Shown here: positions 1 to 11,546 of the stretch, piece after piece
Layout: every line of letters starts with the position of its first letter
How positions within the stretch are numbered: position 1 is the stretch's first letter
Source of the DNA: a virus
Reading direction: 5' to 3' (one strand)
DNA: 64,000 bases
IMG/VR virus record: IMGVR_UViG_3300045988_111260
Notes under the pieces: generated by a model
Database searches by the model: none
Seen by the model: the letters and a program-made list of their open reading frames with translations, nothing else
What the model was told of the DNA's origin: nothing
Translations under genes and position numbers: made by a program

Positions 1-189
1 CTGCAATGATCCATTTTGTCTTCACTGGAACAATTAGCGGATTTGCCAAAATAAAATGTAATAACCAAATAATTAAATTTACGATTGCAAAGTTGATAAC
101 AACCGAAATAACCAATCCTAATATAAATGCTAAAATTGCAACCAGACATCCATTGTCGTTTGTCAATTCCATCAGTAACTTCTTCATCT
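1..189 (-). CDS. Membrane protein, 5' part only (gene runs off left edge); start ATG at 189 with GGGAAA RBS
   Basis: Minus-strand translation MKKLLMELTNDNGCLVAILAFILGLVISVVINFAIVNLIIWLLHF... is open to the window edge and hydrophobic; it overlaps and probably invalidates plus ORF 6..212. Confidence 0.4.
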
Positions 190-218
190 GTTTCCCTTTC
201 ATCAAAGATTAATTTTAT

Positions 219-482
219 CTATTCTACGATCATCCAGTCTTCAGCCAACATATCTGTCTGACTTGCGAGCCAAGGAACTACATTCCCCTGTGCTGTTTTC
301 ATTGCAATATAAGCACCATATTCGACTAATCCGTCTTTATTTACAATGCTTTTAGCAATATCTGTGCATGGCGCATAAGCTCCTGCTGGAACATAATATA
401 AAAACATACCTTTCCCATTCTAACCTTTTCTTGCTACTTTTCTTTTATCTTTCATCGCATCAATTGCTGTTCCAAAATCCAT
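219..482 (-). pseudogene. DUF2829 / Tad2-like small phage protein interrupted by in-frame TAG (420..422) at the conserved Trp position
   Basis: RBS GGAGAA then MDFGTAIDAMKDKRKVARKG-TAG-NGKGMFLYYVPAGAYAPCTD... is one continuous frame; my recollection of the family consensus is ...KVARxGWNGKGMF, so TGG>TAG. Confidence 0.45.
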
Positions 483-495
483 AGTAAATTCTCCT

Positions 496-741
496 TTACT
501 CTTTTTTATATGTGTATTTTACATAAGTCCCTTTGTGGTTTACACTCACAACATCTTTTGACTTCCTCTGTTCTTCTTTTCTTCTAAATTTTTCTAAAAG
601 ATAATCCACTTTGCCATTGCATATTTCGGCATCAGCGCCATTGCAAAAATAGTAAATATCGCACTCTGTACATTTCGTCGTTATAAACTCAAACGCCTGT
701 TGTCGATTGAAATTTGTAACGTCAATAAGTTTACCTATCAT
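496..741 (-). CDS. Hypothetical Cys-rich small protein
   Basis: 81-aa ORF with a C-x2-C ... C-x5-C pattern. Confidence 0.4.
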   Translation of the reverse strand: MIGKLIDVTNFNRQQAFEFITTKCTECDIYYFCNGADAEICNGKVDYLLEKFRRKEEQRKSKDVVSVNHKGTYVKYTYKKE

Positions 742-752
742 GCCACGGCACC

Positions 753-1160
753 TTATTTACTCTCTGTAACTTTAAATGGAACAATTGATTCTGGAATATA
801 ATTAACTTCATATTTATATTTGTTAACTTTAGCCCCACCTAAATCTTCGATCACATACATACTATCTCGGTTCATGTGAATGATATGTTTCTTATATGAA
901 CCATTTGCCGTTTCAACAATAAGTTTTACCTTCTTGCTACCTTCATCTTCTAAGGAAAATGCTCCGACAATTTCAAACTCTACTTTGTCTGTCCTTGTAT
1001 TAATTACAGCAAATCGTCTCAAGACGTTAAAATTGTCTGCTTCTTTAGATACATTAGTAGATACTTTATCTGCCTCTGTGCATCCTGTCACGATACCACC
1101 AATACTGAGACATCCAATTGCAGCAATAATCGCCATTCGTTTTTTAATGTTTAATTTCAT
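753..1160 (-). CDS. Putative lipoprotein
   Basis: N-terminal signal peptide with lipobox-like ...GIVTGC. Confidence 0.5.
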   Translation of the reverse strand: MKLNIKKRMAIIAAIGCLSIGGIVTGCTEADKVSTNVSKEADNFNVLRRFAVINTRTDKVEFEIVGAFSLEDEGSKKVKLIVETANGSYKKHIIHMNRDSMYVIEDLGGAKVNKYKYEVNYIPESIVPFKVTESK

Positions 1161-1190
1161 ATATTCAATTTTCTCCTTTTAAAACTTAGG

Positions 1191-1520
1191 TCATTTAATT
1201 TCTTTTTGTTTTGACCAATCAATTTCTGAAGGTTCTACACCTGTCTGCTGTTTGTAGAATTCATAATCTTCTGTCCAAAACTCTGCATCTTCATCTTTAA
1301 CGAAGTAACTCTCGTCAAAAACTAGATCCATCTCGTCTGGAGTAGCAAGATATTTTACTTTACAACATCTACCATATTTGTATGTTTCTCCGTTATAGCA
1401 AATTGAACACGGCTCCCAGATGCGATATTCTACATAATTGTCTTTTACAACAAACCTTTCGATTTTGCTTTCTGGGATTCCCTGTCTAACAAAACATTCG
1501 TAAATGGTTAGTTTATTCAC
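1191..1520 (-). CDS. Hypothetical protein
   Basis: 109-aa ORF overlapping the ligA start by 8 nt (operon-like). Confidence 0.4.
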   Translation of the reverse strand: MNKLTIYECFVRQGIPESKIERFVVKDNYVEYRIWEPCSICYNGETYKYGRCCKVKYLATPDEMDLVFDESYFVKDEDAEFWTEDYEFYKQQTGVEPSEIDWSKQKEIK

Positions 1521-7104: not shown

Positions 7105-9132
7105 TTATACTAATTCCTCCTTTGCGTCATTTTTAATAGTGAAATTCTTAAGCCAAAACTCAAATTTATCTGGTACATCTTTGTAGATTTTCTTTCCTGT
7201 TTTTGTATTGATCTCCCCAGTTGGTTCTTTTTTATGTTTCTTCTCAACTGATTTCAGATATAGAATATCTCCTTCATCGAATGGGTTCTTCTTATATTGG
7301 TTTGTCCACATTTTTACTTTCTGTGTTTTTCCAGAGTAAATTTCATATAACTGAATGTTAACGATGGATTTTTTAACATCAAGATCTGAAACATAATATA
7401 ATCGTTTATTAACTTTTACGTTAGCATAGCTTACAATTCCGAGAACATTTCTCTGATTGTCTAATTTTTCTTTCAAAGACAATTCTCTGTATGGAATATT
7501 TTTTATAGATTCAATAAGTAATTGTTCTGAATCTAATTGATTATAAAGTGTTTTTGTCTCATGACCATACTTCAAAAGTAAATCAGAAGAAATGTGATAT
7601 TCTATCGCCTTTTCTTTGGACAATTGCTTTTTCCCATTTAATAATTCATAATATTTAACTGTTTCTAATAAGGTATTCGCATCTCCGAACTCTACAAAAT
7701 AATTAATTTTAATTAATTTGTCTATCACTGTTTTATTGAGATGATTCTGCTTTAATACATTGATTACTTCTATGAATGAGCTGTATTTAGCCTGTCCTAA
7801 ATCATATAGTGAATTGGCGACACCTTCTCCAAATCCTTTAATGCTTGATAAATTGGGATATATAATTTTATGTTCTTCATCAATCGTGACTTTTCTATTG
7901 TCTGCTCCAAACCGATAATCTCCCAATTTATATCCCCAAAATTTAATGGCTTCTTTTACTAGAGCATCAATTTTATCTTTCTTATTTTTTTCTTGGTAAT
8001 GATTAATTGCTACTTCATAGAACATTTTCGTATAATGAGCTTTAAACCATGCCTGATAGGCAGAATCCTCAGCCATCGACCAAGCATGCGGAGAGTTGAA
8101 GGCGTACGAAGCTGATGAGTCTATAACTTCCCATATATTATTGAAATTATTAAGTTCTCCAATTTCAATTTGCCAACCATCTTTTAATCTTTCTTTCAGT
8201 TCTTTTAACTTTTCAGGATGAGCTTTATATTTTTTTTTCGAGATATTTTTAATAACTCCATACGTTTCGCCCATCTTCAATTGCAGGAAAGATAATACCT
8301 TCATAATTGACTCTTGATAAATCATAAAATGTGCTGTATCTTGTAACAACTCATCAATTTTCTTTTCGCCTGTTGAATATGGTTCACGATTTAAAAAAGT
8401 ATTTAATAAAGATGCAAATCCTGGTCTAATTGCAGCAATGAAACTACTTAATTCTGCTAAATTTTGTGGCTTATATTTCTTTGCTCTATTTGTTGTCGCT
8501 TCTTTTTCACATTGGTTAACACAACAAGTAATTCCTTTTGCATAAATATCCCATGTTTTATGATCTCCTTCTATCATCTCTCTCAGTTCTTCAGATGTAG
8601 GAACCTCCATTCCTATACTGTGAAAAAATTTATATGTAAGATAAACACTATCTACAATAAGAAAATCTTCTTTTACATATCCAAATTCATCAAGATAGCC
8701 ACCTTCAATGGCGGCACAAATTGTTCTTTTCCCAGTCGTTTCTGAAACAGCACTAATTAATCCTACTTCTCTACGAATATCTCCGTCGAATATAAAATGC
8801 CCACAAGCATGTACTTTTAGATTGATAGTAATTCCTTGATATTCGTTGCTTTGTTTAAATAAATCAACGTATTCTTCTGGAATATAATCTTCAACATGAA
8901 TAAAATCTTTATCTTCTTCATCAGCATATTTTAATGCTTTATTATAGTCATCAAGATATTTTGAAATTCTGTTTGCATCTTCTGGACTAACATCGTTAGC
9001 TCCAGCATATAATTGCCATGCTGCTTTCTCTTTTAACTTTTCTATAGCCATTAACGGATAACATCCATGCTCTCCAAGAAGTTTTTTTGCAGCTTTCACA
9101 AATGGTTCCTGAGTAGCTACATTTAGGTCAAT
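7105..9132 (-). CDS. dnaE: DNA polymerase III alpha (DnaE-type), exon 2; the frame is open upstream of the annotated GTG and begins IDLNVATQEPFVKAAKK
   Basis: IAAIRPGFASL and MIYQESIMKV match the DnaE palm/fingers RPGPM and YQEQ motifs; IDLN completes the catalytic PDIDLN when joined to exon 1. Confidence 0.7.
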   Translation of the reverse strand: MDLNVATQEPFVKAAKKLLGEHGCYPLMAIEKLKEKAAWQLYAGANDVSPEDANRISKYLDDYNKALKYADEEDKDFIHVEDYIPEEYVDLFKQSNEYQGITINLKVHACGHFIFDGDIRREVGLISAVSETTGKRTICAAIEGGYLDEFGYVKEDFLIVDSVYLTYKFFHSIGMEVPTSEELREMIEGDHKTWDIYAKGITCCVNQCEKEATTNRAKKYKPQNLAELSSFIAAIRPGFASLLNTFLNREPYSTGEKKIDELLQDTAHFMIYQESIMKVLSFLQLKMGETYGVIKNISKKKYKAHPEKLKELKERLKDGWQIEIGELNNFNNIWEVIDSSASYAFNSPHAWSMAEDSAYQAWFKAHYTKMFYEVAINHYQEKNKKDKIDALVKEAIKFWGYKLGDYRFGADNRKVTIDEEHKIIYPNLSSIKGFGEGVANSLYDLGQAKYSSFIEVINVLKQNHLNKTVIDKLIKINYFVEFGDANTLLETVKYYELLNGKKQLSKEKAIEYHISSDLLLKYGHETKTLYNQLDSEQLLIESIKNIPYRELSLKEKLDNQRNVLGIVSYANVKVNKRLYYVSDLDVKKSIVNIQLYEIYSGKTQKVKMWTNQYKKNPFDEGDILYLKSVEKKHKKEPTGEINTKTGKKIYKDVPDKFEFWLKNFTIKNDAKEELV

Positions 9133-10274
9133 CCTTGATACCCTCGGTTTCCCGATATTTTAATAGGGGAGTAGACTATACCATAATCGTCGATATTATC
9201 TCGGATTCCCATTGGTAGTCGTTGCGAGCTTCCCATATTGTATATTTAAACAACTTAGGGCTATCTCTCAGGATTATCCAATCCTTGCCGCTGTTACCAT
9301 ATCATTGCAGTTAACAATGCCACATTTTGATTTCTCTAATGCTTGGTGGACAAGGTTTTAGGACTTCCCCTGATATTCTGGGTTTTCTATATATATCACT
9401 ACATATAGCGACTATTATAACAGTACATATTCTACGTTATTTACATTGAACTTTTCTTGTTTAAGAAATTGTTTTAGTTCTCGTTGAGTGCAATTTAGTA
9501 GTGGATACAATTTTTTCATCATATCTTTCAACAAATAAAATCTTTTATTAGTCATATCTGCATAGATTTTTCGTCCGACATTACATTCGCACAAATACTC
9601 GAATTGATTGTTTAATAAATATTCATACATTTCTTTTGTATATAAAACAAAATGATAACCATAAGCTAAATTTTGTTTATTTAATAAGCACCTTGATATT
9701 GATGATGTATTTTTAATATGTAATTCTTTTGCAGCATCCTTTTGTGTCTTATATATTTTTAGAGTTTCAACACATATTACAGACTTGGCATTTGGGTTAT
9801 TTTCATTTAAATTTTTCCCAATCTTTTTTTGAGATAAATTTCTTTTCATTTCTTCAGTCCATTTATGCCCATAATTTGGGTTATTCGTCCCCATAACCAT
9901 TCTTCGCATTTTTTCTCTATATTCATCTGTAGGATTTGGGATATAACATCCAGATCCACCACCATTCATATTGTAGCCATTTTTATATGTGTTTAATTTT
10001 TTAATCCAACTCTTCTCTTTCTCATCAAGATCTTCTCTTTTACACTCTTCTAAAATATAATGTTTAAAACTTTCTTCACCATATTTATTAAAACTACGTT
10101 GCAAATAACAATTTGCATGATCGTTTCTTCTTAAACTATTTAGATGATGTTTCCATCGATCATTTATATCTACACTTTGTCCAACATATTTTTTATGATT
10201 TACAATATTTTCAATACAGTAAATACCTGTAATAAAAATTCCTCCTTTACTGGTTTATATGCACTATTGTTTTA
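9133..10274 (-). mobile_element. Group I intron (about 1.14 kb) interrupting dnaE, carrying a GIY-YIG homing endonuclease ORF
   Basis: Exon 1 ends ...AGQMPD then TAA; exon 2 frame opens at IDLN; intron 3' part contains a P7-like GACUA...(P8)...GGUAUAGUC and ends in G. Confidence 0.65.
9415..10233 (-). CDS. GIY-YIG homing endonuclease (I-TevI-like), intron-encoded; probable non-AUG (ATT) start 7 nt after GGAGG
   Basis: ITGIYCIENIVNHKKYVGQSVDINDRWKHH...NCYLQRSFNKYGEESF lies in frame upstream of the track's TTG start; C-terminal NUMOD-like region. Confidence 0.7.
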   Translation of the reverse strand: MTGIYCIENIVNHKKYVGQSVDINDRWKHHLNSLRRNDHANCYLQRSFNKYGEESFKHYILEECKREDLDEKEKSWIKKLNTYKNGYNMNGGGSGCYIPNPTDEYREKMRRMVMGTNNPNYGHKWTEEMKRNLSQKKIGKNLNENNPNAKSVICVETLKIYKTQKDAAKELHIKNTSSISRCLLNKQNLAYGYHFVLYTKEMYEYLLNNQFEYLCECNVGRKIYADMTNKRFYLLKDMMKKLYPLLNCTQRELKQFLKQEKFNVNNVEYVLL

Positions 10275-11546
10275 ATCGGGCATCTGACCTGCTAAAACAC
10301 GGTCTTTTGTTAAAAAGCGTTCTGGATAAATAGGAATATCTGCATTGAATCTATCTACCGTTGTTAATCCTAGCAACTTATTTGTAATGAATGATGCAGC
10401 GCTACCTCTTGACGTAGTAGTTAATATTCCACCTTCGCAATTTACTGCATCATCTACAATTGCTTTACTTGTTAAAAAGTAATCTACAACTCCTGAATCC
10501 ATGACTTGTTTTGCTTCATACCTAATTCCATCTGCTTTTTCTTTTGATTTTTCTTTTTCTTTAGCATAGGCTTTGTTTAATATTTTCTTATAAATAGCAC
10601 ATTTACCTTCATATGTTTTATCTTTATGAACGCTTGGAATTTTAAATTTTCTGTCAAAAACAATTTCTTCGCATTCTGACATGAACACATTTGTGTTCAT
10701 AATAGCAGTTAAGACTTCTTCCTCAGAAAGAACTCCTTGCTCTTGAAATCGCTCTATAACCGTTGTTGTGTCTGGATAATCCATATACCATCCAAATTCT
10801 TCTGGATATTCAATATGCTTGTACTTTAAAATCTGATCCCTTTTTACTGCCGTCTTATCATCAATGTAATGACTATCAAGCCCACAAATGATCTGAATAT
10901 TGTGTTCTTTTGCAAGTTTTAAGATTTTTCTGTTAAGTCTTTTTTGTGGATCAGTATTATGAGCCTGCACTTCTAAAAAGAAATTATCGCCAAAATAGTC
11001 ATGTATTTTTAACCAAATGTCCTCTGCATCTTTATAATGCCAACCAGATAAGCAAGCCGATGTAACAATTACATTCTCTTTTGGAATATTAAAAAGTAAT
11101 TCTAAGTCAATTCTTGGTTTGTAATAATATCCATCAATATTTGCCATAGAAAGGGCGAAGTTAATATCTTCTCTCCCTTCAGCATTTTTCGCAAGTATCA
11201 TCATATGACAGTTTGCTTTGTCTTTTTCTTTTCTATCTTTCACCCAGTAGGCTTCAGCAGAATGAATATATTTCAAATGCTCCTTTTCAGCCACTTTATA
11301 TACTTCAAACTGGTTTCCTTGTGACCCATGCTCCCCTGAATAAAGACATTTTGCACCAAATTCATGAATACGTTTTGCATAATTTTCAATTGATTCTGCA
11401 CAATCTGGAGTTGATGTATTACTAAAATCTTTATGACAATGGTAGTTTTCAAGATATAGATTTCTTCCATAATCTTCAACAGAATATGGAAATTTAAATT
11501 TTAATGTTGGGATAATTTTTGCAATTAAATCTTCATACATAATCAT
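10275..11546 (-). CDS. dnaE: DNA polymerase III alpha (DnaE-type), exon 1 (PHP domain through catalytic-site Asp)
   Basis: PHP YLENYHCHKDFS; RGSAASFITNKLLGLTTVD...ERFLTKDRV...MPD matches DnaE GRGSAAGSLVAY...ERFLNPER...MPD(IDxxF). Confidence 0.75.

Follow-up and report, generated by a model that had tools for sequence, protein, structure and literature searches.

A circulating amber allele of a Tad2-like sponge gene in an uncultured human-gut phage, probably a recent loss of function

Results

The Tad2-like gene and its interruption

The window analysed here, a stretch of 64,000 nucleotides from an uncultured phage (IMG/VR record IMGVR_UViG_3300045988_111260), carries on its minus strand a gene of the Tad2 family that is interrupted by an in-frame amber codon. 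The locus is laid out as follows.

496..741, minus strand: 81-aa Cys-rich ORF, the upstream neighbour, whose stop overlaps the Tad2 ribosome-binding site (RBS)
491..496, minus strand: Shine-Dalgarno sequence AAGGAG, 8 nt 5' of the ATG and kept in all aligned alleles
219..482, minus strand: Tad2-like (PF11195) gene, 87 codons plus stop, interrupted at codon 21
482..480, minus strand: start codon ATG of the Tad2-like ORF, as read from the sequence
423..482, minus strand: the 20-aa product actually encoded, MDFGTAIDAMKDKRKVARKG, comprising helix alpha1 and strand beta1 only
420..422, minus strand: amber TAG in place of TGG (Trp21), a G>A change at window position 421
219..407, minus strand: 62-aa internal ORF from Met26, a possible restart product

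Past the amber codon the frame stays open for 66 more codons, NGKGMFLYYVPAGAY...LAEDWMIVE, a segment that begins NGKGMFLYY and ends at the natural TAG at 221..219. An uninterrupted ORF for the whole domain of ~85-105 aa would be expected of a Tad2 family member; the window allele has a TAG at codon 21, and gene callers annotate the 62-aa ORF from Met26 instead of the 87-codon ORF. The TGG and TAG alleles are 1 nt apart over 264 nt, so the two ORF pieces are not a chance juxtaposition. The initial annotation of this locus had described the minus-strand frame, the RBS and the position of the amber codon accurately, including coordinates and family, and its proposal that the stop sits on a conserved Trp, a single G>A away from TGG, is borne out by an intact allele (on contig L015) that differs exactly there.

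The N-terminal context of the gene varies among relatives. In some of them (P0003, P0004 and P0006; 148 aa) Tad2 forms one in-frame fusion with the Cys-rich 81-aa ORF that lies upstream, while the Tad2 of others (P0009 etc., 152 aa) has an unrelated N-terminal domain of ~65 aa. P0008 has the ligand loop GWKWEC instead of GWNGKG.

Family, fold and the role of Trp21

With a Trp at codon 21, the read-through product matches PF11195 over the full domain (97.2 bits, E 8e-28, profile positions 1-73 of 73; gathering cut-off 25 bits), which confirms the DUF2829/Tad2 assignment by profile search. The 62-aa ORF from Met26 scores 50.9 bits on its own. The N-terminus that the initial annotation had given for the family agrees with the family consensus, KKVARxGWNGKGMF. 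The Trp-restored product is 100% identical to one database protein (P0001) and 98% identical to another (P0002).

Among Tad2 proteins in the PDB, the best sequence match is ModTad2 from a Myroides odoratus prophage (8V3E, 9EIB; 90 bits), followed by SptTad2 (70 bits), HgmTad2/AcrIIA7 (69 bits) and SPO1 Tad2 (55 bits). For the intact allele P0002, which is 98% identical, AlphaFold2 gives a confident model (pLDDT 93.9) in which residues 3-11 form alpha1, 15-18 beta1, 19-26 the ligand loop and 27-31 beta2. All of the top 24 Foldseek matches of this model in the PDB are Tad2 proteins (TM 0.65-0.80), and the top one is His-ADPR-bound ModTad2 (TM 0.79, 48% identity).

Codon 21 aligns with W21 of HgmTad2, for which the SPO1 Tad2 equivalent is W25. 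A Trp stands at this position in all 80 homologous loci from IMG/VR and in 35 of 36 aligned homologs. SPO1 Tad2 contacts 1''-3' gcADPR chiefly through W25 and N26, by van der Waals and polar interactions, and its helix alpha1 locks two dimers together into the pocket-forming tetramer (doi 10.1101/2023.05.01.538930). The HgmTad2 substitutions W21A/N22A cause a marked loss of gcADPR binding and of ThsA inhibition (PMC10680739). Of the ligand-pocket residues (W21, N22, G23, W71, S74, T76 and D77) the window allele keeps all except W21 in its frame, and the intact sister alleles have the complete set.

Genome neighbourhood and host

Tad2 lies within a variable block downstream of replication genes (PolIII-alpha, a RecD-like helicase and an NAD-ligase), in the order small ORFs, Tad2, an optional methyltransferase plus SNF2, ADP-ribosylglycohydrolase, a kinase-like protein, NrdD and NrdG. 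The relatives of this phage come from human-gut metagenomes. A megablast of the region against INPHARED gave no match, a tblastn search with PolIII-alpha for a cultured relative gave identities of at most 36%, none of them close, and a contig scan of 185,579 species genomes gave no close match. The nearest matches in bacterial genomes are fragments in MAGs of uncultured Bacilli or Clostridia, at no more than 82% identity.

Distribution, origin and age of the amber allele

By look-up, 15 contigs have the 62-aa product among their called proteins, and ten of them were examined. Seven of these (L005, L006 and L008-L012), from different ENA/Logan run or analysis accessions, carry an identical 264-nt allele including the TAG; two of the other three are cut by the contig end, and the third, L014, has a different lesion. 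L005 and L231 (ERZ1742802 NODE_20_length_183945) show 100% identity with the window across 10.4 kb, and by coordinates the window is approximately the reverse complement of 92,929..156,928 in NODE_20_length_183945. Since L005 comes from the contig of the window's own strain, at least six further independent assemblies carry the amber allele.

The amber allele was derived from TGG by a single step, as L015 has the same haplotype with TGG and differs from it by this one base (G>A). Within the same 30-nt context TGG is found in L015 and in 58 other contigs from two other collections (38 of 38 from IMG/VR and 20 of 20 from JGI/ENA metagenomes), and a search of IMG/VR for the amber 30-mer returned nothing. 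Comparison with related phages, which the initial annotation had called for, thus shows that close relatives have TGG and an uninterrupted gene: the Tad2 ORF is continuous in 138 related loci (80 IMG/VR homologs and 58 clade members). A sequencing or assembly error, with TGG as the true sequence, had been among the readings offered at first, and the single-base difference from an intact allele would suit it. It is rejected because the same TAG allele, identical over 264 of 264 nt, was recovered in several independent assemblies under seven ENA/Logan accessions; the TAG carriers moreover differ in what lies downstream (two gene contexts) and at position 484 (two sub-haplotypes), and the chance of an error is practically nil.

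The amber carriers differ from the window only by a module swap, an 18-nt indel, one recombination tract and SNPs. Isolated SNPs among them number 0-3 per 2-4 kb, and it is a SNP at window position 484 that defines the two sub-haplotypes. The module swap starts ~20 nt past the Tad2 stop and exchanges a 73-aa ORF plus ADP-ribosylglycohydrolase for an N6/N4 methyltransferase plus SNF2 helicase, or the reverse. The amber lineage is therefore young and near-clonal, yet old enough for structural diversification. Having outlasted at least one module swap, an indel, a recombination tract and a SNP, the amber allele was not instantly purged, and such persistence could mean that it is advantageous rather than merely tolerated.

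The junction of the swap is a conserved intergenic sequence of ~22 nt, ATAAAATTAATCTTTGATGAAA, 3' of the Tad2 stop (window 165..218; also in L008, L010 and L011). Past it stands either the methyltransferase and SNF2 helicase module or, directly, the small membrane-like ORF and ADP-ribosylglycohydrolase.

Selection on Tad2 and the internal ORF

Intact Tad2 alleles are under strong purifying selection, with pS 0.18, pN 0.014 and pN/pS 0.079 among 20 distinct alleles of the clade; by region, pN/pS is 0.13 for the first 25 codons and 0.065 for the rest. The amber carriers are 100% identical within the gene, and given the youth of the allele its 62 intact downstream codons are uninformative rather than evidence against a loss. 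A second, independent N-terminal lesion occurs in L014, a single contig of 674 nt, where a 7-nt deletion produces GAT AAA TAG at codons 12-14. The deletion junction was absent from IMG/VR, and as a lesion on one short contig it gives only a hint of recurrent selection.

Could the truncated gene still act through the internal ORF? Translation that terminates at the amber codon might reinitiate at Met26, whose ATG lies 12 nt further on behind the purine-rich GGGAAAGG, to give a 62-aa protein with some activity, for instance at the cyclic-dinucleotide site, or with a modulating role. The ORF is intact and scores 51 bits on PF11195, and in HgmTad2 cyclic dinucleotides bind at a site separate from, and independent of, W21/N22 (PMC10680739). 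However, the 62-aa product would lack alpha1, which builds the tetramer interface, as well as beta1 and the whole beta1-beta2 loop with W21, N22 and G23 that lines both ligand pockets. The full N-terminus is kept in all 80 IMG/VR homologs and in the 58 clade members, and its 25 codons are themselves purified by selection (pN/pS 0.13). We consider a functional short product highly improbable.

Stop-codon usage, tRNAs and recoding

The genome has 33% GC and is coded almost wholly on the minus strand, and the standard code gives 85% coding. TAG terminates 21 of 75 long minus-strand ORFs (28%). Among 14 same-frame TAG junctions Tad2 is the sole split gene, the remaining junctions being ordinary ends of genes with an RBS and ATG behind them, or lying in non-coding frames. 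Global recoding of TAG is ruled out by this stop-codon usage together with the inspection of every same-frame TAG junction.

Full-length Tad2 would still be made if a suppressor tRNA or a recoding signal led to the decoding of this one TAG, ideally with insertion of Trp, and regulated read-through had been put forward in the initial annotation, which also pointed to odd tRNA-like elements in the phage. Related IMG/VR contigs measure 140-170 kb, so that the window covers ~40% of the genome, and the tRNA search was widened accordingly. ARAGORN found no tRNA in the window, and none was found in the same strain beyond it, either in the 9.8 kb downstream (L005) or in the 9 kb past the far end (L231). 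One tRNA-like element does exist in the window, and it is the only one:

34575..34716, minus strand: tRNA-like element, Rfam tRNA 44.9 bits, the sole tRNA-type Rfam match in the window

In this element the anticodon stem and the acceptor, D and T arms are canonical, and ~78 nt of AT-rich sequence take the place of the 7-nt anticodon loop. ARAGORN run with -i gives the anticodon 'ata'; the possible anticodons are AUA or ACA, and CUA is impossible. As an amber suppressor it is ruled out by the interrupted loop and the lack of any CUA reading.

The search for a CUA tRNA asked for at the outset was thus carried through 83 kb of the amber strain, out of a genome of ~160 kb, and through the tRNA clusters of ten related genomes (L234-L243), with no CUA anticodon in the former or among ~90 tRNAs in the latter. 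Each of these clusters holds 7-10 canonical tRNAs and lies ~4-6 kb past a CoiA_N gene; they comprise Ser-GCU, Tyr, Arg-ACG, Asn, Gln-UUG and Met plus strain-variable slots (Trp-CCA or Pro-UGG; Lys, Thr or Arg-UCU; Leu-CAG or Leu-AAG; Ser-UGA or Glu). The corresponding site in the amber strain is ~5 kb past L231, and the nearest relative with a cluster, L234, is ~90-95% identical to the window's strain.

That the content of the cluster varies between strains speaks for suppression, as does the presence in four relatives of a tRNA-Trp(CCA), one anticodon mutation away from an amber suppressor that inserts Trp; in a more exotic variant, a strain-specific change of this tRNA from CCA to CUA would make Tad2 conditionally expressed. 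Against suppression stand the use of TAG as a normal terminator with no other gene split by it, the 83 kb of the amber strain that hold no tRNA except the interrupted element, and the tRNAs of the relatives. Nor is there a stimulatory RNA structure 3' of the stop (360..440, minus strand; fold z = -0.61 against shuffles), and the sequence flanking the amber codon is identical to that of the TGG alleles, which argues that no read-through signal has co-evolved with it. Near-cognate read-through of UAG is not known to insert Trp. Phage-encoded suppression is very unlikely, and regulated read-through finds no support.

Discussion

Here, we describe what is probably a genuine and recent loss-of-function allele of a Tad2 sponge, in a near-clonal lineage of an uncultured human-gut phage of ~160 kb. 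Among the readings that the initial annotation had left side by side, that of a recently inactivated anti-defence gene is the one favoured by the evidence. Ribosomes would start at the ATG at 482 behind its strong RBS and terminate at the TAG at 422..420, releasing a 20-residue peptide with alpha1 and beta1 only. The stop would remove Trp21, Asn22 and Gly23, the loop that in solved Tad2 structures lines the pocket for the TIR-derived Thoeris signal, and re-initiation at Met26 would yield a fragment that has neither this ligand loop nor the tetramer-building alpha1. As both products would miss parts that are needed, no functional sponge is expected to be made, a loss of function that we infer from homologous structures and mutants. 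Since the amber lineage has spread among human gut samples, Tad2 seems to be dispensable in its current host or hosts.

Is the loss neutral, or is it favoured? A refinement of the knock-out explanation holds that the loss is adaptive: a functional sponge may have become harmful to the phage in its present host, as it would where a guard of the Panoptes type fires on sequestration of its decoy nucleotides, so that a Panoptes-like system or a Thoeris-linked equivalent in gut Bacillota would punish sequestration and confront the phage with a 'sponge dilemma'. Under Panoptes, phages with a frameshift or a premature stop in the sponge gene acb2 are selected, the wild phage PaMx41 carries a premature stop in acb2, and SptTad2 triggers Panoptes weakly (PMC12657218). 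The occurrence of the structurally diversified amber lineage in at least seven assemblies and the second N-terminal lesion in L014, both against a background otherwise of strong purifying selection, would also fit an adaptive loss. However, the amber allele is absent from the 58 contigs of the two other collections, its carriers are near-clonal so that their recurrence is accounted for just as well by hitch-hiking on a successful strain, the L014 lesion is a singleton on a 674-nt contig, and the Panoptes precedent comes from the literature only. We regard an adaptive, circulating knock-out of Tad2 as rather unlikely.

The Tad2 family, its mechanism and null alleles of sponge genes are already known; the gene described here is an uncharacterised member with a natural null allele. 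Its closest known counterpart is the His-ADPR sponge ModTad2, with which it shares the length class (87-89 aa) and the motifs GWNGKGMF and W..S.TD. In type II Thoeris the signal is His-ADPR; ModTad2 sequesters it and leaves type I unblocked (doi 10.1101/2024.01.03.573942). Unlike ModTad2, the window allele has a stop at the Trp, and the candidate ligands of the gut-phage clade are His-ADPR or gcADPR. SPO1 Tad2 (Gp34.65; 8SME/8SMF/8SMG) and HgmTad2/AcrIIA7 (8KBI and related) belong to the same Pfam family and fold, and their contact residues, W25/N26 and W21/N22 respectively, correspond to codons 21-22 here. Both are gcADPR sponges, and HgmTad2 binds cyclic dinucleotides too. They lie further off (55-69 bits), HgmTad2 carries insertions not seen in the window gene, and the window gene is interrupted.

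The acb2 nulls of Pseudomonas phage PaMx41 and of T4 escapers on Panoptes resemble the amber allele as premature stops in a small nucleotide-sponge anti-defence gene. However, the sponge family is Acb2 there and Tad2 here. A likeness also exists to stop-codon-recoded gut phages, in that this phage too is large, comes from the human gut, has an amber codon within the frame of a conserved gene and belongs to a group with a tRNA cluster. In contrast to TAG-recoded phages, the amber codon splits a single gene, TAG often serves as a genuine terminator, the search for a CUA tRNA in 83 kb of the strain and in ten relatives was negative, and all close relatives have TGG at this codon.

A nonsense allele alone is ordinary, and this one is mildly interesting as the loss of a sponge gene in the wild. 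Its value lies at the population level, as a null at the ligand-binding Trp circulates in several human-gut metagenomes amid strong purifying selection. The natural pair of TGG and TAG alleles, one base apart, is suited to asking whether an anti-Thoeris sponge carries a fitness cost or triggers a guard in gut Bacillota, and also whether the Thoeris signal met by this clade is gcADPR or His-ADPR. For annotation, a 62-aa "Tad2-like" ORF in public data should be read as a fragment.

Possible mobile elements and other features of the phage group

The interrupted form of the tRNA-like element is common to ~49 related IMG/VR contigs of 140-170 kb. The length of its AT-rich insert, 63-71 nt, varies by homopolymer indels, and a few copies have changes that break the acceptor. 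The element could be a pseudo-tRNA, a tRNA with an unusual intron or a target site. In one relative (L044, ~1..1267, minus strand; IMGVR_UViG_3300045988_108264), the same tRNA-like site holds, right after GGCAATAC, a HEARO/IscB omega-RNA (RF02033, 98.9 bits), followed by an RBS and an ORF that starts MVYVISQDGKPLMPC...GVDTGSGTIG, a putative IscB by its motifs. The 5' half of the tRNA-like element stands there at the expected place of the guide, which suggests that the site may be a homing target.

The phage group appears to be rich in mobile introns or homing endonucleases. PolIII-alpha (window 7105..11546, minus strand) is split into ORFs of 424 aa and 664 aa with ~1.2 kb between them, which holds a 229-aa NUMOD3-endonuclease ORF (~9415..10104); in the relatives L001 and L003 PolIII-alpha is one gene of 1077 aa. 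A group I intron was considered for this interruption and set aside, as it has no Rfam match. The nrdD gene (L005 13066..15640, with equivalents in L001 and L017-L021) consists of two or three ORFs in many strains and of a single 745-aa ORF in L007 and L016. A LAGLIDADG-like ORF precedes the ligase in L018-L021.

Past the window end in the same strain (L231 1..2100 and upstream) lies a divergently transcribed block that encodes a 698-aa protein with a CoiA_N domain and a 964-aa protein with a weak match to PF05183 (RdRP). Beside it is a stretch of ~3 kb (L231 4923..7961) in which no genes were called and neither the Rfam nor the tRNA search gave a match.
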